Shown here piece by piece: positions 9,354 to 23,361 of a DNA stretch of 64,000 nt. The DNA lies in NCBI GenBank assembly GCA_963847765.1, contig CAWKBA010000008.1, forward strand, positions 10,643-74,642, in the 5' to 3' direction. Every line of letters begins with the position of its first letter. The first letter of the stretch is position 1. Below the pieces are notes generated by a model. It was not told where the DNA came from, did no database searches, and saw only the letters and a list, made by a program, of their open reading frames with translations. Origin of the DNA: Candidatus Melainabacteria bacterium (lineage in GTDB: Bacteria > Cyanobacteriota > Vampirovibrionia > Obscuribacterales > Obscuribacteraceae). The position numbers and the translations under genes were made by a program.

Positions 9354-9692
9354 ATGTCTTCTGTGGCAAATGTAACCGATAGTAGTTTTGAACAAGAGGT
9401 ACTGAAAGCCGAAGTACCGGTATTAGTTGATTTCTGGGCGCCCTGGTGCGGCCCTTGTAAAGCAGTTGCGCCCGTAGTTGAGGACTTATCTCAAGAATAC
9501 GCTGGACGCCTGAAAGTAGTTAAGCTAAATACCGACGAAAACCCGAAAACAGCACAGGCATACACTATTCGGGGTATTCCCAGTCTATACCTTTTCAAGA
9601 GCGGGCAAGTTGTTGAGCAAATTGTAGGCGCCGTGCCTAAAGCAACACTTACATCAGCAATTAACAAGCATATGGAAGCTGTTAAGCGCTAA
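9354..9692 (+). CDS. trxA: Thioredoxin
   Basis: 112 aa with [14 protein letters not shown] and the cis-Pro motif GIPS. There is a GGAGG-like RBS upstream. Confidence 0.9.
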
Positions 9693-9712
9693 TTGCTTGC
9701 ATCGGAAAATAA

Positions 9713-10216
9713 GTGAAGGAACTCTTGCTGGCTTTTATCTTGGCTCTGGTTATTGGCAGCATTATTAATGGCTGGCAGCAACAACCCAGCCCGCCAGCTC
9801 AAAGCTCAGGCACGGGCTCAAAGAACACGGGCGGAGCTTCGCCCCGCCCCTACGCGAACGCCGTTACAGGAGCGGGTCGCGATTTTCCTGTAACCGATAA
9901 TAGTTTTGAACAAGAAGTAGTAAAGGCTAAATTGCCGGTATTAGTAGATTTTTGGGCGCCCTGGTGCAGCCACTGTAAAACTATTGCTCCTGTAGTTGAA
10001 GACTTATCTCAAGAATATGCCGGGCGCCTGAAAGTAGTTAAGCTAAATACTGACGAAAATCGCAAAACTGCGCAGGCATATAATATACGGGGACTGCCAA
10101 GCCTATACATTTTCAAGAACGGGCAAGTTGTTGAACACATTGTTGGCGCTGCTCCTAAGGCAACACTGGTAGCAGCAATTAATAAATACGTTGAAGCCGT
10201 TGCGTCCGGAAAATAA
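9713..10216 (+). CDS. Membrane-anchored thioredoxin paralog (WCSHC active site)
   Basis: 167 aa. An N-terminal TM (MKELLLAFILALVIGSIINGW) is followed by a linker and a Trx domain. The Trx domain is closely similar to trxA at the nucleotide level by my hand alignment. Confidence 0.8.
   Translation: MKELLLAFILALVIGSIINGWQQQPSPPAQSSGTGSKNTGGASPRPYANAVTGAGRDFPVTDNSFEQEVVKAKLPVLVDFWAPWCSHCKTIAPVVEDLSQEYAGRLKVVKLNTDENRKTAQAYNIRGLPSLYIFKNGQVVEHIVGAAPKATLVAAINKYVEAVASGK
9828..9853 (-). repeat. GTAGGGGC hairpin element, in frame inside the thioredoxin paralog linker
   Basis: cgggcggagcttcgccccgcccctac is the near-exact reverse complement of the copy at 11086..11112. It is translated as GGASPRPY. Confidence 0.8.
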
Positions 10217-10774
10217 ATGAAAGAAATCTTGCTAGCTTTTATTTTGGCTCTAATTATTGGCAGTATTATTAATGGTTGGCAGCAACAGCCCCCTCAGGAA
10301 GCACAGCGCAAGCCAATAGCGGGTACAACTGGCAACAGTACAAAGACAAGCGAGAACACTGGCTCAACGGGCAAGGTTGTAGGGGCGGACTTTGTCCCGC
10401 CCGCACCCGCCCCTACAGGACCCAGGCGTGATTTTCCTGATTTTAACTCCTTCCCTAGCCTTGATTCTGCCAATTTTAATGATTTAGTGCTTGCCAGCGA
10501 GAAACCTGTTTTTATTGTTTGTTTTACACCCAACAATTTATCTTGCGAACGAATGATACCCCTGATTGCCGCATTGGCTCAGGAACATGCCGACTCGATA
10601 AAAATGACAAAACTGAATGTACTGGGCAATGCAGGCTTGGCACAGAAATACGAAGTTTATTCAGTGCCAACCTTTATTGCATTCAGCAAAGGACAGATAA
10701 CAGCTAGATTAACCGGGGTCGTAGCCAAAGATCGCTTAGAAGAGATGGTAAAAGTGGCAAACCAAAGCCGATAG
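10217..10774 (+). CDS. Membrane-anchored thioredoxin-like protein lacking the CxxC pair (single Cys retained)
   Basis: 185 aa. The N-terminal TM is nearly identical to that of the preceding gene. In the Trx fold, WCGPC is replaced by NNLSC and the cis-Pro motif VPT is retained. Confidence 0.7.
   Translation: MKEILLAFILALIIGSIINGWQQQPPQEAQRKPIAGTTGNSTKTSENTGSTGKVVGADFVPPAPAPTGPRRDFPDFNSFPSLDSANFNDLVLASEKPVFIVCFTPNNLSCERMIPLIAALAQEHADSIKMTKLNVLGNAGLAQKYEVYSVPTFIAFSKGQITARLTGVVAKDRLEEMVKVANQSR
10379..10404 (+). repeat. GTAGGGGC hairpin element, in frame in the thioredoxin-like linker
   Basis: gtaggggcggactttgtcccgcccgc has the stem GGGCGG/CCGCCC. Confidence 0.8.
10405..10416 (-). repeat. Partial GTAGGGGC element (half-site)
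   Basis: acccgcccctac lies immediately after the full copy and contains the exact 8-mer in the opposite orientation. Confidence 0.5.
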
Positions 10775-10831: not shown

Positions 10832-11083
10832 ATGAAGAGTTATCTGATTATTTTCATCTTAGTCCTTTGTTTTACATGTTGGTTGGGCGACGCCGGCAAT
10901 CCGCCCAGTACCGTGCCGGTTAGAATTGGTGAGATGACCAGTGCCCCTTACGGACCCATTCACCAGGAAGAGATGATACCGGATTTTACTTATGTCGATC
11001 AGCCAAGGAATAGTCCTTTTATAACCAAAATAGAAAACAGTAGTATCGGCCATGAAGCGGAATTCCCCATTGGCTTAAGATAA
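10832..11083 (+). CDS. Small secreted or lipoprotein-like protein, unknown function
   Basis: 83 aa with a hydrophobic N-terminus containing Cys residues (MKSYLIIFILVLCFTCWLG). Confidence 0.4.
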   Translation: MKSYLIIFILVLCFTCWLGDAGNPPSTVPVRIGEMTSAPYGPIHQEEMIPDFTYVDQPRNSPFITKIENSSIGHEAEFPIGLR

Positions 11084-11085
11084 TC

Positions 11086-11112
11086 GTAGGGGCGGGGCGA
11101 AGCTCCGCCCGC
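11086..11112 (+). repeat. GTAGGGGC hairpin element (intergenic)
   Basis: gtaggggcggggcgaagctccgcccgc starts 3 nt after the stop codon of the preceding ORF. Confidence 0.8.
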
Positions 11113-11159
11113 ATCAGCCCACGAAGAAAAGAAACAATAAAGAAGAATCACCAATAATA

Positions 11160-11353
11160 ATGAAGACCTGGGCAAAATGGACGTTATTGATACTATGGAC
11201 AGTGCTGTTGCTTTGCACCGCCGGCTTCTGGAATCCTTTTGCCTCATTTCCAGCTCTTATTAAATACTCAGTTGTTTCCTGGTTGGAGCGGCGTTATTTG
11301 GCGCTCTTGTTCTTCTTATTCAATTCTTTATTTTACTTTCTATTATTTTTCCT
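11160..11353 (+). other. Probable N-terminal transmembrane segment of the FtsH-like gene, in a different frame as sequenced
   Basis: ORF 11160..11459 begins MKTWAKWTLLILWTVLLLCTAGFW (TM1). The frame of the 1044-aa ORF is open from 11264 and there encodes LVGAALFGALVLLIQFFILLSIIFP (TM2). Adding one A to the A3 run at 11262..11264 would join the two. Confidence 0.4.
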
Positions 11354-14300
11354 TTGCCGCCACGTGCAGATCTCAAAGCCCCCAAAAGTATCTGGCGCAA
11401 ATTTTTTCCTTTCTTATTTAAAGCCCCAACCATCAATCCCAAAGCTCCTACCCTGCTAAAAGAATTAGTTGGTAATGAAAGAGCCAAGACTGAAATTCAG
11501 GAAGTTGTAGAAATGCTTACTGATCCAAGCAAGTACAATGCAACCGGCGCTCAGGTGCCTAAGGGAATGCTTTTCATTGGACCACCCGGTGTTGGCAAAA
11601 CATTATTTGCCCGCGCCATTGCTAATGAAATCGGCATTCCTTTTTTCGTAATCGAAGGTTCCAGTATAAGCGGATTAATTATGGGTTTAGGTGTACTCAA
11701 ACTAAAAACATTATTTACCAAATTGCGCCAATTTGAACGATCGATAATTTTTATAGATGAAATCGATTCCATGGCAGCTCGCCGTAAAGCCGACAAAGGC
11801 TTTGGTGGTGTTGCCGACATGAATATGACTCTAAATACTTTGCTCACCGAAATGGATGGTTTTTATGGCAGCAATATGATGGTTATTGGCGCCACTAACA
11901 ATGATTCTACGTTGGATCCTGCTCTTATGCGTTCCGGCCGCATGGACAGAAGAATTTATTTTGAATTGCCTAACCCGGAAGAAAGAAAAGAGCTATTTCG
12001 CTATTACTTGAATAAAGTCAATGCTGATTGGCCGGCTATAGATTTAGACGAACTAGCTATGCTCACCGCCAATTATTCTCCAGCTGAAATTGCAGGCGTT
12101 GTTAACGAGGCGGCTTTAATTGCCAATCGCCCCAATGGTCCGGGCAAAGTGACTTCGGCTGTAATTATTCAAGCTCTGGAACGCATGTCGGTTGGACTTG
12201 AGCGCACCATGGTTGGTTCAGGCATTCAAATAACCAGTCATGATGCTTCAGTACGTCTTGATGATGTTATCGGTATTGATGATGTTAAACACGATATGCT
12301 TGAGATAGTAGATTTTTTACGGCGCGGTGATGAATTGCGACGTATTGGCGCCAAAATTCCTAAAGGTATTTTGCTGGTCGGGCCTCCTGGTGTGGGTAAA
12401 ACAATGCTCGCTAAAGCTATAGCTAACGAAGCCGGCGTACCTTTTTATGGCTTATCAGGCAGTTATTTTATCAATGCTTATGTCGGTGAAGGAGCTGAGC
12501 AAATAAGAGCCCTTTATACACAGGCGCGCAAAAGCCCGGCGGCAATTGTTTTTATGGATGAAATTGACGCTCTCGGTGGTACAGTCACAGACACAGGCAG
12601 CCAACGTCACAGTGCTCTTAATCAATTATTGGTTGAACTGGATGGCATTGGGCGCAGTAATGTTATCACTATTGGCGCCACCAACGTAGAACAAAATCTT
12701 GATCCTGCTTTTATGCGCTCGGGTAGATTCGATCGCAAAACCTATATAGGCTTACCTGATGCCGACGGCAGAAAGAAATTATTTAAAAAATATTTGAAGG
12801 ATATTAAATTAGCCTCTGAACCGGATTTAGACAATTTGGCAAAAATATCAGTCAATTTTTCCGGGGCTGATATTGCTGCTGCTACTAATGAAGCTGCCAT
12901 TATTGCCGTGCGTCGCGGCAGCAAGCATGTGGAACAAATAGATCTGGAAAATGCTGTTGATCGCATATCCGTAACGGCTGGCCATAAATTAAACACCGGC
13001 GGTATGAATTTATCTCGCGTGCCTGACATTGATGTCATGCTCGATGACGTTAAAGGCATGGATTCAGCCAAGGCTGAAGCAGCAGAAGTAGTAGCTCTGC
13101 TTAAACATGCCGATAAAGTGGCCAAAAGTGGATTGAAAGCGCCCAAAGGAATATTACTGGTAGGCCCGCCTGGTACTGGTAAAACAATGCTGGCCAAAGC
13201 CATTGCTAATGAAGCTGGTGTGCCATTTTATGCACTATCCGGCGGTGATTTCCAATCTATGTGGGCTGGTGTTGGCTCTAATCGTGTGCGCGCCGTTTAT
13301 GAGCAGGCACGCCGCAGCGGCAAGCCCTGTATTGTCTTTATAGATGAAATTGATGCCATCGGCAGCAAGCGCGGCGTAGAACGTGGTGGCGGTGCCGTGC
13401 AAGACTCTAATAAAACACTCAATCAATTATTGAGCGAGCTGGATGGTTTTGGTAAACATAAAGTGCTTACCATTGGCGCCACTAATAACGCCGATATACT
13501 TGATGGGGCGTTATTGCGTCCGGGACGTTTTGATCGCAGAATCGACATTCCATTGCCTAATCTTGAAGGCAGAGAGGCTATCGTTAAGTCTTATCTAAAA
13601 GATGTGCCTTACGATGAATCAGTAAATCCGCTTGATGTCGCTCGTATGACCGTGTATAAAGCCGGGGCTGATTTGGCCAATATTGTCAATGAAGCCGGAC
13701 TTGTTGCTATCCGTGACGGGCGCACAAAAATAGCTCAATCAGATCTTATTCAAGCTGTTCAAAGGGTCAGCTTCGGTATGTCTTACAGTGGCAATGTTTT
13801 GCGCGATGAATTGTTGCACACAGCTCATCATGAGGCCGGACACGCTATAGTCTCTTATTTCCGCAATCGCAAAGATCGCATCCAGGTATTAACCATTGTG
13901 CCTGTTGGCCAAGCGTTAGGCTATCTCTGGAGGGTACCAAAAGAAGACTATCACTCCACTTCCAAAGAAGAATGGATGACAAATATGGAAGTGGGACTTG
14001 GCGGCTATGCAGCAGAAGAATTATGTTATCAAACTACTACAGCCGGTCCTTGTTCTGATCTGGATAAAGTGGCCTATTTCGCCCGCAAGATGATCAGAGA
14101 ATGGGGCATGGGTTCATTCAAATTCAATGTTGATCGGGCCTTTGGCGGCGAATATTCTCGCACTTCGCCGGAAACTGAACGACAAATAGAAGAAGAAATC
14201 AAAGGCATTGTTGATCAATGTTTGGACAATGTGCGTGAATTGCTACGTAAGCATAAGGATAAACTGCTCAATTTAGCCGAAGCCCTCATGGAAAAAGAAA

Positions 14301-14488
14301 CTCTCTACTTCCGCGACATCGCTAGAATTCTTGAGCCTGATCGTTCCGAACTAGACATTGAACGCGAATCTTTGATATTAGCCGACAAAAAATTAGTGGG
14401 CAAAGTACCCATAATAAATCTCGAAGCTATCAAAGGTTTATCCGATCCAGAAAAAGAGCCAGAAAAACCGAAAGAAAATCCCGATTAA
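11354..14488 (+). CDS. FtsH-like ATP-dependent zinc metalloprotease with three tandem AAA+ modules and one M41 peptidase domain
   Basis: 1044 aa. Walker A GPPGVGKT / GPPGVGKT / GPPGTGKT lie near 11579, 12379 and 13162. Walker B motifs are FIDEID / FMDEID / FIDEID. There are three GATN...R.GR.DR second-region-of-homology motifs, and HHEAGHAIV lies near 13825. Confidence 0.85.
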   Translation: MPPRADLKAPKSIWRKFFPFLFKAPTINPKAPTLLKELVGNERAKTEIQEVVEMLTDPSKYNATGAQVPKGMLFIGPPGVGKTLFARAIANEIGIPFFVIEGSSISGLIMGLGVLKLKTLFTKLRQFERSIIFIDEIDSMAARRKADKGFGGVADMNMTLNTLLTEMDGFYGSNMMVIGATNNDSTLDPALMRSGRMDRRIYFELPNPEERKELFRYYLNKVNADWPAIDLDELAMLTANYSPAEIAGVVNEAALIANRPNGPGKVTSAVIIQALERMSVGLERTMVGSGIQITSHDASVRLDDVIGIDDVKHDMLEIVDFLRRGDELRRIGAKIPKGILLVGPPGVGKTMLAKAIANEAGVPFYGLSGSYFINAYVGEGAEQIRALYTQARKSPAAIVFMDEIDALGGTVTDTGSQRHSALNQLLVELDGIGRSNVITIGATNVEQNLDPAFMRSGRFDRKTYIGLPDADGRKKLFKKYLKDIKLASEPDLDNLAKISVNFSGADIAAATNEAAIIAVRRGSKHVEQIDLENAVDRISVTAGHKLNTGGMNLSRVPDIDVMLDDVKGMDSAKAEAAEVVALLKHADKVAKSGLKAPKGILLVGPPGTGKTMLAKAIANEAGVPFYALSGGDFQSMWAGVGSNRVRAVYEQARRSGKPCIVFIDEIDAIGSKRGVERGGGAVQDSNKTLNQLLSELDGFGKHKVLTIGATNNADILDGALLRPGRFDRRIDIPLPNLEGREAIVKSYLKDVPYDESVNPLDVARMTVYKAGADLANIVNEAGLVAIRDGRTKIAQSDLIQAVQRVSFGMSYSGNVLRDELLHTAHHEAGHAIVSYFRNRKDRIQVLTIVPVGQALGYLWRVPKEDYHSTSKEEWMTNMEVGLGGYAAEELCYQTTTAGPCSDLDKVAYFARKMIREWGMGSFKFNVDRAFGGEYSRTSPETERQIEEEIKGIVDQCLDNVRELLRKHKDKLLNLAEALMEKETLYFRDIARILEPDRSELDIERESLILADKKLVGKVPIINLEAIKGLSDPEKEPEKPKENPD

Positions 14489-14845: not shown

Positions 14846-15376
14846 CTATGATGCTCGATAAATTTCGTCAACCAAGGCCGCTTCCCTGATTGTGTAATAT
14901 TCTCTTGAACCTTTCTGATATCGTTCTTTTAATTTGCGGCGTAATTTACTTTCTTTAGTCGGTGGATCTTTTTCTGGTGGATTGGTTTTTAGCTCTTTTT
15001 TCTTGTGTTTTAACCATTTATCCAAATGAATTTCCAATTGAGGTAAATGTTTGTCTACTATATCCCAGACAATTTTAGGATCTGTTTTCCAATATACATG
15101 AACCAAAATTGTTCGCATTCCCTTAATTAATGCCCATTCAATGTCAGGATAAAGTTCGTCATAATGATATTCACTCACCAGTTTCGAAGCCGCTTCGCCG
15201 ATTATGGAAAGGTGTCTTTCACAATAGCCACGAAAATATTCATCCTCAAACCAAGCTTTTTCTCCTTTTGAAAATTTTGGATGACAATGAATTGATCGAA
15301 TGGACTGCTTAATATCTTGCAGACGATCAAGCTCCTTGCGTCCAAAAGATTTTTTTATTTTTCTCTCTTCGTTCAT
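14846..15376 (-). CDS. HEPN domain (DUF86-type) toxin-like protein with Lys-rich C-terminal extension
   Basis: 176 aa with an Rx4H motif in MRTILVHVYW. Its start overlaps the stop of the upstream nucleotidyltransferase gene (ATGA). Confidence 0.75.
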   Translation of the reverse strand: MNEERKIKKSFGRKELDRLQDIKQSIRSIHCHPKFSKGEKAWFEDEYFRGYCERHLSIIGEAASKLVSEYHYDELYPDIEWALIKGMRTILVHVYWKTDPKIVWDIVDKHLPQLEIHLDKWLKHKKKELKTNPPEKDPPTKESKLRRKLKERYQKGSREYYTIREAALVDEIYRAS

Positions 15377-15749: not shown

Positions 15750-17504
15750 TTATTTCTCGCTATAAGGATTCGGCAGATAAGGCAATTTGTCTGTTTCTCT
15801 TTCCGGTTTGCGCAATTCGACTTCTTCGATTAAAACTGAAGGGGTGATTAAATCCGTATACGACAAACCACTTGAGCCGGCATACAGACCTTGCAGCCCT
15901 AAGATAAGGACTTGCATCATTGCCGGTATAAACGATGTCGCGCAGCACACGCAAAGATAGAGAACTAAATTGGGCGCCGCGCACCAGTTGTTCTTTGCCA
16001 TCATCAACAGAAACTGAATAAATAATAATGGCGGGCGGGCAGTTATGCCACCGGTTGCACCGCTGGCTACACTTGCTTTAACTTCTGCAAGCAGCGAAGC
16101 CGGATCAAATACATGCCGGCATCATATGTTGACAGCCGACGAGCAATCATCACTGATTTCAAGCCTTCTTTTTTGCCTAATTCTATAAGCTTATCTTTTA
16201 GCTGGGCTGGGCTTAATTGATTACTCGGAATCTATAAATAAAATATTGGCTTCGCCCACACCATTAATTGAATGTCCATTGCTGTGATCAGTGTATAAAG
16301 TAGGCATGCGGCTTGTGCAAAAAGTTTTGAGAATGCCTTTATCAACAAGAAGAACTTTTTGTGCCGGCACCCCATCATCATCTATTTTATAACCACCAAA
16401 TAATGGGCTGGTTTTTAAAGTTTTTTGCTAAGGGATCATCAGTAATAGTAATAAATTCAGGCAAGATTCGCCGTCCATAAAGATCTTTCAATGGATTACG
16501 TCTGGCGGGCTGTGCATTTTCCATACCACTGGCCGAGATTTTCTTGCGCATGACCTAAATTGGGGCGCAAAATCTGATTGAAAAATTCAGCTGCAGCCTG
16601 TCCTTCCAGCAATATTGGCCCGCGATATTCATCAGCCAGCGGTGCCGATTTCAAGCTAATCAAATTAGCAATCATGTCTTTAATTGCCTGCTCCAGCACT
16701 TCTTTTGCGGGCAATTCGTTTTCACTGTAGCCGGCAAAGACTCTGCTGTCTGCCAATTGCATGCCGTCGTCTGCTTGCAAGCTAGCCATAATTGTCAGCA
16801 AATATTGATTTTGATATTCCCGGCAATATGTGCCTTCGCTGTTTACAAACCAGTCATTACAGCCATTGGCACTAAACCAACAAGTGAATGTTGAATGGCT
16901 GGATATTGGCTGAAAATAGCCGAAAGTGATTTAATTGTTGTTTGCCAATGATCGCTGTCTGAGTCAAACTTAAGCGGTTTATCGATAACAGCAACCGGCT
17001 TTTCCTTCGACATATCATCGGGACGCTCTCTGACATTATTTTGAGCCAGGTAAGTTTTTTTAGCTTCCAGATTTTTTATAGCTACTTTATAATCCGCATC
17101 AGTGCGCAACCATAATGTATGGCGAATGGCATCATAGTCATCGTCGATAGTAATAACGTTCCCATGAGGGAGAATTCCCGATTGTGCTGCGGCCGGGTTA
17201 GAGAAGTTTGAGCTGTCTAATTTATAATCTCCTTCGCGAACATCAACTTTAAGATCTCGCCAGCGTTTATGCTCATTTTCAGTCAGCGCCCCGCATGATG
17301 CTGAAAGAGAAACGTTATCATATTGCGTAATTGTGTAAGAGAGAAAATATGGACCAGTATGGCCATTAAGTTTAAGGCGTTCTTTGAGCGGGCCATTTCA
17401 TCTTGCATGGCCTGCATGACTATGTCAGGAGCATCCGCAAGCGCCGGCAAACAAGGCACAAGCATAATCAAAATTACAGCCCAGCTGAAAAAACTTTTTC
17501 TCAA
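15750..17504 (-). pseudogene. TldD/PmbA-family secreted protein, paralog or partner of the upstream gene, broken by about eight frameshifts
   Basis: The pieces (signal peptide RKSFFSWAVILIMLVPCLPALA ... SPSVLIEEVELRK) align in order to the neighbouring TldD-like protein but occupy all three frames. No HExxxH motif is present (PmbA-like). Confidence 0.6.
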
Positions 17505-19237
17505 TTTTTCTTTTCCTTATTTTCAGATAAAGGCGGCGGCAGCACCGGCGGCTTGATTTGCTCGTTTGTTTTTCTTTCTACTTCAATTGTTTTAATGAGC
17601 AAGCTGGGCGAGGTTGCTGACACCGGCACCCAGCCTGATTCAGCACCACAAGTGCCGTTAAAAGTGTCCGGGTCATCGCCGGCTTGAATAATATTTTCTA
17701 GCGAAGTTAATGGTGTGCCGACCAGGTCTACACCACGTACAAGTTCATCAGGGCGGCCGTCAGCATAAACTTTGGTGACCATAAGCGGCAACAACTTAAA
17801 AGATTGAGGCATCATCGTCTGAGTAACTGTAAAGCCGCCTGGCCAGTTGATCAAAAATCAAGCCATATTGTTTGCCTTGTTTTTTTGTTTCATTTATAAG
17901 TTCCTGGCGCAATTGGCTATAGGGCACAGTTTTACTGGCCACAACCATAAGATTGCCCTGCCGGGCGGTAGGCTGATAACCCGGGGCACAGCGCCCGTGG
18001 CCGTTGCTGTGTGGACAGCCCTTCACCGGAGAGCGCCCGCACAGAAAAGTTTTTAAAACACCATGATCAACAATGGTTACCTTTTGCGCCGGTACCCCTT
18101 CATCATCAATGGTATAGAAGCCGTTTAAAGTTTTTGACTTCAACTTCTCGCAAAGCGGGTCATCAATGACTGAAATAAATTCGGGCATAATTTGCTGTCC
18201 CAATTTTTTAGCAAAAGTGCGCCCTTCTTCCATGTCTTTCTGGCGATGCCCTTCAATGCGATGCCCCAGTGTTTCATGGAAATAAACAGCAGCCGCCTTG
18301 CCGTTTAAAATAGCCGGTCCGCTGAACGGCTCAGCCGGCGGTGCCGTTCGCAATTTTTCAAGCGATTGCGCCAGATCGTTAACTGTTTGAGCAAACTTCG
18401 TCTCATCGGGAAGCTCATCTGCTGATCTTGCTTCCACACTGTCATAAAGCCACAGTCTCATACCATCATCAGCAAGAGCCTCGGCACTGGTCGATAAACG
18501 GTACTGCACACCTTCATCTTCAACCTTTGTGCCTTCGCTTGTTACCAGATAGCGGTGAGTGTGAATAGTTGCAAAATCAACACGCGAGTGGAAAATCTCC
18601 GGATATTGCCGATAAATAACAGACAAATGTCGAAGCCTACTCTCCCAGACAGCGCGATCGGCTATTAAAACTGCCGGCTGGCCGGTATGAACACAAGGTT
18701 TTTCAGCAGAAAAATCAGCCGAAGTATCTTCTTCCGGTGCTAGTACATCCTCATTTGCTTTGACAGTTGCATAACGTTTCTGGGCAGATTTAAAAGCAGC
18801 ATCGGTCTTGCCCATACAGCTGCTCGAATAGCCTTTTCATTATCTTCAAGCGGAATCGGCGAATGAGCCACTGGAAATAAAGCAGATAAATCAGGCTTGT
18901 TGCCACGGATTTTATGAGTATTATCTCGTTGAGGGCTGCCTACTCTTAAATCCAGCTCTAACATGCGTTGGTGCCGGGGATAGCTGTCGATATTTAAAGC
19001 ACCATATTGTGACAAGAGATCAAGTGTTTCTGTGTCGTAAAGTCTATAAGCAAGAAAATATAGTGGTGCTTCGCCGGCTGTTTTTAATTTATCGAAAGAG
19101 CGATTTAGCTCTTTTTGCAACGCTGCCATGACAACATTATCTGAAGTATGAGCATTTTGTGCTCCCGCAACCGGACTATATATAAGCTGCCAGAGCAAAA
19201 GGACAGCCAGGCAAATAGACCAGTTTTTTTCTTTCAT
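17501..19237 (-). CDS. Secreted TldD-like metalloprotease, interrupted by two homopolymer frameshifts as sequenced
   Basis: It has a signal peptide (MKEKNWSICLAVLLLWQLIYSPVAGA), HETLGHRIEGH and SNGHGR. The three ORF pieces join at the C3 run 18811..18813 and the A5 run 17853..17857. Confidence 0.7.
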
Positions 19238-22327: not shown

Positions 22328-23361
22328 TTACGGATTAAATGCAAACAAGAAGGTCGTGACGAGATTAAAGCCGGCATGACCAATAATTGTCGTTGTCGTG
22401 TTGGTATAGCGCTTCACCAACCCCATCAGTATTGACCAGATAGTCACTTGCACTATAAATATCGGTGCATGCGCAAATTGCCCGTGGAGCATGCCATGCA
22501 ATAACGCCGCCGGCAGAATACCAAAAACAGGTTGCAGAGCGCCTCTAATCAATGTCTCTTCACCAATACCGGCACACAACGCTGTTGCCAGAGCCAGAAT
22601 AGCCGAAGGCACAAAACCGCCACCAGCAGTAAAAGTACCCGAATTGTAAAAAGAAAGCTTTGTTGCTAAGTCCTGTCCAGGTAAGTGGTGCGTGAAATGT
22701 GCCCAAATTGCATCATAAAGGAAACTGCCCAGGATTAAAGCAATACCTATACCTATTTGTTTTTGGCTTGGTTTCACCCAGCCTAATCGAGCCATGGCTA
22801 TTTTATATGGACGGGTGACATAAATGCCTACACCCAAAAGGAAAGCAAGATTAAACCTATGCCGTTGTAGGAGAGCAATTGCATAAGCATAAGAGGTATG
22901 GGCAAAGGCATGTATGGCATTTTGAAACTATCCGGCTCAATGCTCATGAGCAAATAGGCAAAAGTAGTCACATAAATGAATAAAGCCATTAAATGCGGAA
23001 AAGAGTTTGGCACGAAGATTTTTTTGCTTAAAAAATATTCGGCTGCTTTAATGTTTTTTCTGATCAGCGGCAACAATATTTGCCCGGTAATGAGCAGATC
23101 GGCTCCAGTAAATAGCCAGGAAAACCCCTTTCTCACAGGCATAAACAATATGAGAAATGTTGTCGCAACAGCAAAAACCAGGGCATTAATCGCCCAAAAA
23201 CTAATAAATAGCTCCAGAGGAGTAATTAATAAAAGTCCCTCCGCTACCGCCACAGCAACAATGACAAACCTTAAAATCCATTCCAACCAGCGCCTTTTCC
23301 TGGCCACATGGGCTAAAAGCCCTAGTAGCGCAAGGATTAAAATAAGCAAAAAATCTAACAA
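22328..23361 (-). CDS. CPBP-family (CAAX/Abi) intramembrane protease with extra N-terminal TM domain; one homopolymer frameshift as sequenced
   Basis: It has GEETLIRG (EExxxR), LLHGMLHG and HAGFN motifs. The two ORFs join if the A4 run at 22836..22839 has one more base. Confidence 0.7.

Follow-up and report, generated by a model that had tools for sequence, protein, structure and literature searches.

A predicted membrane-anchored, FtsH-derived metalloprotease with three tandem AAA modules in Obscuribacterales/Melainabacteria

The DNA analysed here, referred to as the window, is a stretch of 64,000 nucleotides (nt) from Candidatus Melainabacteria bacterium (assembly GCA_963847765.1, contig CAWKBA010000008.1, positions 10,643 to 74,642 of the forward strand), and our subject is an FtsH-like protease gene at window positions 11160–14488. 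The bulk of this gene is a long open reading frame (ORF) at 11354–14488 (+), whose 1044 amino acids (aa) were resolved by Pfam into three AAA domains (PF00004, E 1.9e-119 in three stretches), three AAA lids (AAA_lid_3) and a single Peptidase_M41 domain (PF01434, residues 822–991, E 6.3e-44), while no Pfam domain was detected in a short 99-aa ORF at 11160–11459. An earlier note, made from the letters of the sequence, had described three full FtsH-like AAA cassettes followed by one peptidase, and the Pfam scan returned this same complement. The motifs listed there were likewise recovered in place: Walker A at ORF residues 76, 343 and 604 (nt 11579, 12380 and 13163), Walker B as FIDEID, FMDEID and FIDEID in modules 1, 2 and 3 (hereafter D1, D2 and D3), three copies of the GATN...R.GR.DR motif that includes the Arg fingers, the peptidase motif HHEAGHAIV from residue 825 (nt 13826), and the pore loops LIMGLG, AYVGEG and MWAGVG. 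By its domain content, the locus is predicted to encode a membrane-anchored, ATP-dependent zinc metalloprotease derived from FtsH, arranged as anchor, D1, D2, D3 and M41.

The reading of 11160–14488 as one ORF did not survive inspection. The 99-aa ORF sits in a frame other than that of the 1044-aa ORF, the main frame meets a stop when read upstream of the latter, and one base is missing at 11279/11280. Intact homologues start MKTWAKWTLL...KYSVVSVIGAALFGAL...PLPPRADLKAPK, which corresponds to window frame 0 up to 11279 followed by the main frame from 11282 (the N-terminal region of full-length homologues is also given as MKTWAKWTLL...KYSVVSVIGAALFGAL...IIFPLPPRADLKAPK); the first 40 residues are thus encoded in the frame of the ATG at 11160 and the remainder in that of the long ORF. 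In a DNA alignment against L001, the locus that encodes the closest homologue (P0002, 85% identity), there is a single 1-nt gap at 11279/11280 (GTTTC-CTGG in the window, GTATCAGTAA in L001), and insertion of one base yields a repaired protein of 1109 aa. The anchor, frameshifted in the window at 11160–11356, consists of two transmembrane helices separated by a loop of ~13 residues and is found in all full-length orthologues inspected. An anchor from 11160 with two transmembrane helices and almost no periplasmic loop, as proposed in the earlier note, is therefore a property of the family, although in the window it is separated from the rest of the protein by the frameshift that had been missed. 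When the first 123 residues of P0002 were scanned, Pfam gave no match at E<=1, FtsH_ext (PF06480) included, and both controls, P0219 and P0123, did match that family.

We consider it highly probable, from comparison with intact sequences, that the 1-nt deletion in the region coding for the second transmembrane helix is an assembly indel rather than biology, because neighbouring genes are frameshifted as well, family fragments break at unrelated positions and the 1044 codons are open and constrained. At least six further frameshifts fall within ~8 kb in neighbouring conserved genes: when compared with intact orthologues at the related locus L082, two TldD/PmbA-like genes (15753–19234, −) are each spread over three frames, and an Rce1-like gene (22331–23310, −) over two. 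A search with the N-terminal anchor returned 13 short family fragments from other assemblies, with breaks at unrelated positions. The remaining 1044 codons contain no stop, and the proportion of nonsynonymous differences (pN) across them is as low as in intact orthologues. One could instead take the gene to be truly broken in the source genome, either as a pseudogene or as a split gene yielding a 99-aa membrane peptide and a soluble triple-AAA protease; the frameshift is, after all, present in the sequence as given, and the public protein record that matches the window ORF exactly (P0001) has 1044 aa as well. We judge this improbable, given that the frameshifts in conserved neighbours are typical of an indel-prone assembly, that the open codons, their low pN and the unrelated fragment breaks all speak against it, and that the first in-frame start past the upstream stop is a TTG inside the region coding for the second transmembrane helix. 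A programmed frameshift was rejected: no slippery heptamer occurs at 11274–11282, the frame is continuous in every intact orthologue, and the break is unshared.

Family statistics were derived from the best 120 database matches, all at least 65% identical to the window protein. Nearly all (118) are 1097–1220 aa long, and three Walker A motifs together with one HExxH are present in 119, giving more than 115 intact orthologues at 65–85% identity. Where source names are given they are Candidatus Obscuribacterales, Candidatus Melainabacteria, Candidatus Obscuribacter or the unresolved 'Cyanobacteria bacterium', and three records bear photosynthetic-cyanobacterial names as deposited (one Drouetiella sp., two Oculatellaceae). 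The three-module form, whose conservation within a clade the earlier note had left to be searched for, accordingly recurs in more than 115 independent assemblies, from Obscuribacterales/Melainabacteria where named. In every module the Walker A GK[TS], Walker B DE, sensor-1 Asn and both Arg fingers are retained in at least 119 of the 120 sequences, so that D1 and D2 do not lack intact ATPase motifs; the catalytic competence claimed for all three modules is, as a prediction from conserved motifs, in keeping with this. HExxH is invariant, with H826, E827, H830 and D902 unchanged in 119 sequences. Mean pairwise identity reaches 0.73, 0.73 and 0.76 in D1, D2 and D3, compared with 0.57 in the protease domain, and pN is 0.06–0.10 per AAA module against a saturated proportion of synonymous differences (pS) of 0.65–0.82. 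Each module is under strong purifying selection. The pore loops are less uniform. That of D1, [I/F][M/F]G, is conserved and mostly aliphatic (I98/F19 and M93/F24 at its two variable positions), that of D2 has Phe or Trp but is variable and is gapped in 18–19 of the 120, and that of D3 has an invariant Trp. The alignments place the window protein in a conserved family of Obscuribacterales/Melainabacteria, which are non-photosynthetic relatives of cyanobacteria, and in this family the three predicted ATPase sites and the predicted protease site are kept by selection. Such proteins are labelled just 'FtsH' or 'AAA family ATPase', an annotation blind spot, and the orthologues are numerous enough for structural work. 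The features of the gene and of its upstream neighbours are collected in Table 1.

Table 1. Parts of the protease gene and upstream neighbours, in window coordinates (residues are those of the 1044-aa ORF unless stated)
Feature	Coordinates	Strand	Basis
5' part of the gene, frame 0: start codon, transmembrane helix 1 (~11178–11231), 13-residue loop, start of transmembrane helix 2	11160..11279	+	88% identity to residues 1–42 of the intact L082 orthologue; N-termini of P0002–P0056 match
Frameshift site: one base short relative to intact orthologues, two bases left of one codon; splits the gene into 99-aa and 1044-aa ORFs	11280..11281	+	Alignment with L001, ORF table, frame translation
Remainder of transmembrane helix 2 (to ~11356) and conserved basic/hydrophobic juxtamembrane linker (PLPPRADLKAPKSFWRKFFPFLFK..INPKAP)	11282..11446	+	Family alignment, many (nearly) invariant positions
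AAA module D1, residues 32–290: GPPGVGKT, FIDEID, GATN, R..GR; aliphatic pore loop LIMG	11447..12223	+	Pfam; motif conservation 119–120 of 120
AAA module D2, residues 300–555: GPPGVGKT, FMDEID, GATN, R..GR; pore loop AYVG, variable in the family	12251..13018	+	Pfam, family alignment
AAA module D3, residues 561–815: GPPGTGKT, FIDEID, GATN, RPGR; pore loop MWAG, Trp invariant	13034..13798	+	Pfam, family alignment; colinear with FtsH structures including M41
Predicted Peptidase_M41 zinc metalloprotease domain, residues 816–1000: HEAGH 826–830, invariant Asp902	13799..14353	+	Pfam E 6.3e-44; family alignment; AlphaFold2 model
C-terminal tail and stop codon, poorly conserved: mean pairwise identity 0.43; predicted local distance difference test score (pLDDT) <50 at the very end	14354..14488	+	Family alignment, AlphaFold2 model
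Small 83-aa ORF with N-terminal hydrophobic segment, invariably directly 5' of the protease gene; possible partner	10832..11083	+	Positional orthologues in L001, L082, L083, L084
Three thioredoxin-family genes with short gaps: one without transmembrane segment, one membrane-anchored (WCSHC), the last membrane-anchored with degenerate active site (NNLSC)	9354..10774	+	Pfam; same order in four related loci

Modules of the window gene are 39–51% identical to one another at the protein level and 50–57% at the DNA level, third-position identity at conserved residues between modules is ~0.5, and no long near-identical DNA repeats were found. A 29-residue peptide is common to D2 and D3; 28 of its residues are identical, and 15 of these 28 are encoded by different codons, in agreement with the many synonymous differences remarked on in the earlier note. 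An assembly-repeat artefact was rejected, since modules only 50–57% identical in DNA recur in the same architecture in over 100 assemblies; saturation of synonymous sites between modules, purifying selection on each module and the number of independent assemblies all bear this out, and the view that the triplication is old and selected is upheld by the sequence comparison. Each repeat begins at the V.L.DV.G helix, takes in the lid and extends to the segment that enters the protease in FtsH (ALERMSVGLER...). Because it spans this whole length, the sequence indicates that the complete FtsH AAA cassette (large domain, lid and linker to the protease) was duplicated twice in tandem within the gene. 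Matches to known structures agree on FtsH descent. D3 together with M41 (residues 561–996) is colinear with the FtsH chains 7zbh, 2dhr and 2ce7, scoring 368 bits to 7zbh, and the window protein lies above the cut-off of NCBIfam TIGR01241. As single domains, D1 and D2 have their best PDB matches in FtsH (197 and 230 bits, respectively), compared with ~131 bits for Cdc48 domains and ~157 bits for p97 domains. Cdc48/p97 chains top the PDB ranking for D1/D2 only by two-domain sums (~131+133 and 157+155 bits), and a Cdc48 origin of these modules was rejected since FtsH scores higher per domain.

The family can be set against three known systems. FtsH, the universal membrane protein quality-control protease, has one ATPase ring and is considered a weak unfoldase. 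Canonical members (MEROPS M41; FtsH of E. coli, Thermotoga, Thermus and Aquifex, mitochondrial AFG3L2 and YME1L) share with the window family two N-terminal transmembrane helices and an AAA module of the classic clade that contains the second region of homology and is fused directly to an HExxH M41 domain with an Asp ligand. They have one AAA module per chain in place of three, such that two extra tiers are predicted here between the membrane and the FtsH-like unit; they also possess a periplasmic FtsH_ext domain, whereas the window family has the short loop described above, and their pore loop carries Phe where D3 carries Trp. The p97/Cdc48/VAT, NSF and NVL proteins resemble the window family in their tandem classic-clade AAA modules, in the spacing of these modules and in predicted geometry (p97-like, template modelling (TM) score ~0.7), and human p97 D1 has a non-aromatic pore loop, as does the first module here. 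Proteins of the p97 type nevertheless have two modules, an N-terminal adaptor-binding domain and no protease, in contrast to three modules, a transmembrane hairpin and a fused C-terminal M41 domain, and taken as single domains the window modules are nearer to FtsH than to Cdc48. ClpAP and ClpCP share the concept of multiple ATPase tiers that deliver substrate to a single proteolytic chamber, and two-ring ATPases over a protease are associated with stronger unfolding; these systems differ in belonging to other AAA+ clades, in using a separate serine peptidase, in being soluble and in having two tiers only.

AlphaFold2 models were computed for monomers, namely the 1044-aa ORF (119 sequences) and D1–D2 alone. 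The full model (pLDDT 82.8, predicted TM score (pTM) 0.64) aligned with p97/Cdc48 D1–D2 chains at target-normalised TM scores of 0.70–0.74 over ~550 columns (about 540), with the AAA and M41 domains of apo FtsH (3kds) at 0.87 and with AFG3L2 at 0.81. The D1–D2 model (pLDDT 76, pTM 0.57) matched the same p97/Cdc48 chains at 0.69–0.73. Inter-module spacing equals that between D1 and D2 of p97, with one colinear alignment over residues 300–792. For D1–D2 as well as D2–D3, the models thus predict the axial arrangement found in ATPases with two stacked rings, and for D3–M41 the geometry of FtsH; the prediction is supportive of stacked rings, and not decisive.

We postulate, as the likeliest reading of the gene and the models, a hexamer in which three ATPase tiers are stacked on a single protease ring. 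Six chains would assemble via the M41 ring, as in FtsH, placing three coaxial homotypic ATPase rings with 18 sites below the membrane, D1 being membrane-proximal and D3 lying on the protease, and substrate would be threaded to the protease chamber along a single long axial channel. D3, with its invariant aromatic FtsH-type pore loop, would be the main translocase feeding the protease; D1, with its conserved and mostly aliphatic loop, may engage or extract substrate at the membrane; and D2, with its variable loop, may add grip or couple the rings. By analogy with the two-ring ClpA, ClpC and Cdc48, the net effect would be an unfoldase stronger and more processive than single-ring FtsH. The explanation as a whole, from FtsH-derived membrane protease to three tiers, we consider moderately probable, and several points count against it. 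The stacked hexamer, which the earlier note had envisaged as four tiers, is extrapolated from the geometry of monomer models, in which the linkers have low confidence (pLDDT <50 at residues 280–295 in the D1–D2 model; 52–70 at ~281–300 and 541–560, the D1–D2 and D2–D3 linkers, in the full model). AlphaFold2 was trained on many p97 structures and may give p97 geometry for any tandem classic AAA pair. The roles given to the rings, their substrates and the greater unfolding power are carried over from known two-ring AAA+ machines. Lastly, 18–19 of 120 sequences have a D2 pore loop that is gapped or lacks an aromatic residue, and the D1 loop is mostly aliphatic, such that a grip on substrate need not be exerted by all tiers. 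A chain with three intact ATPase modules raises questions as to how stacked rings are coordinated, whether more rings mean more pulling force and how substrate gains access to a pore further from the protease.

The pore-loop differences also argue for a stacked hexamer of another kind, in which D3 alone translocates and D1/D2 are ATP-binding assembly or regulatory rings, comparable to p97 D1 or NSF D2, that stabilise or gate the complex: the D1 loop lacks an aromatic residue in most members, the D2 loop is variable and in part gapped, and only D3 has an invariant Trp. Yet D1/D2 have an essentially invariant set of Walker B Glu, sensor-1 and two Arg fingers, arguing for hydrolysis and not mere binding, the D1 loop is itself strongly conserved and hydrophobic, and D1 and D2 are constrained as much as D3, so that we regard translocation by D3 alone as rather unlikely. 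Far less plausible is an arrangement like that of dynein or midasin, with the three modules of one chain side by side and two chains closing a planar six-module ring that bears two proteases. In its favour, three does divide six, and the linkers from lid to next module (~10–45 residues, low pLDDT) are flexible. The prediction of both consecutive pairs in p97-like axial geometry and the p97-like D1–D2 spacing between modules nonetheless speak against a planar ring, as does the fact that FtsH M41 domains form a closed six-fold ring needed for the proteolytic chamber, and relatives with two or four modules fit a rule of six per ring less well.

These relatives emerged from an exhaustive search of 1.84 billion representatives, among which the window family forms one 50% cluster (P0089). 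One representative, P0121, combines four AAA modules with M41. Seven further representatives have three modules by our own hidden Markov model (HMM) count; Pfam confirmed three in P0122–P0125, P0137 and P0152 (three by HMM count) showed two strong AAA stretches at the strict Pfam threshold, and P0174 is assigned by HMM count only. About 40 representatives have two AAA modules plus M41. Taxonomically, one three-module cluster (P0125) comes from Thermoleophilaceae, and Melainabacteria themselves possess a two-module FtsH paralogue (P0144/P0304; RTL41810.1, MBS2004529.1) with a long periplasmic domain and one M41, the modules of which are nearest to canonical FtsH and not to the window protein. 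In P0121–P0125 and P0144, as in the window protein, several FtsH-type AAA modules (two to four) precede a single M41; the other multi-AAA M41 proteins differ from it in being at most 48% identical, in several cases keeping FtsH_ext, and in their gene neighbourhood. P0122 aligns colinearly with the window protein throughout the modules (43% identity). In a bootstrapped neighbour-joining tree, the modules of P0123, those of P0125 and P0141, and those of P0121, P0124 and P0147 cluster among themselves (support 74–92), on a poorly supported backbone. Clustering within proteins rather than by position suggests repeated, separate internal duplications in multi-AAA M41 proteins. The search also returned four proteins of 1600–2100 aa (P0133, P0138, P0142 and P0149) in which five or six FtsH-like AAA modules occur but M41 is absent; three of the four proteins have hydrophobic, transmembrane-like segments.

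The author of the earlier note knew of no described FtsH of such architecture. We too found no paper that describes a multi-AAA FtsH or a stack of three AAA rings (subscription-only literature lying outside the scope), although the architecture is less singular than supposed, given the other lineages with two, three or four AAA modules plus M41; it is uncharacterised but recurrent, not unique. A broader proposal, in which three coaxial and all-active rings sit on the protease ring and the family is one case of an unrecognised, repeatedly evolved class of two-, three- and four-tier FtsH in Melainabacteria, Thermoleophilaceae and other lineages, we advance tentatively and at slightly below an even chance. 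It would be the first AAA+ machine known to us to stack more than two rings. The two-, three- and four-tier series would then amount to a natural experiment on ring number versus unfolding force and processivity at the membrane. For the AAA+ protease field the two- and four-module relatives offer a graded series, and the family itself a target for work on structure and mechanism.

Upstream of the protease gene, the three thioredoxin-family genes (Table 1) are preceded by a divergent histidine kinase. Kinase, thioredoxin, second thioredoxin-family gene and small ORF occur in the same order in L001, L082, L083 and L084, whose proteases are 67–85% identical to the window protein, with extra genes interspersed in some. 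This neighbourhood hints, faintly, at a link to envelope redox stress, the four loci all being from one order. A promoter and terminator scan gave counts at chance level, and the evidence for an operon consists of gene spacing and synteny. An identical 27-nt GC-rich hairpin element, CGTAGGGGCGGGGCGAAGCTCCGCCCG, is present in two inverted copies, of which none is expected by chance: one (9826–9852, −) inside the second thioredoxin gene, where it encodes the linker, and one (11087–11113, +) 47 nt ahead of the start codon of the protease gene. The ORF immediately downstream of that gene, at 14846–15376 (−), is for a HepT-like ribonuclease (toxin); in related genomes the position is occupied by a 416–441-aa ORF and a glycosyltransferase instead. 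Elsewhere in the window, the segment 58001–60000 has a local G+C content of 0.51 against a background of ~0.44.

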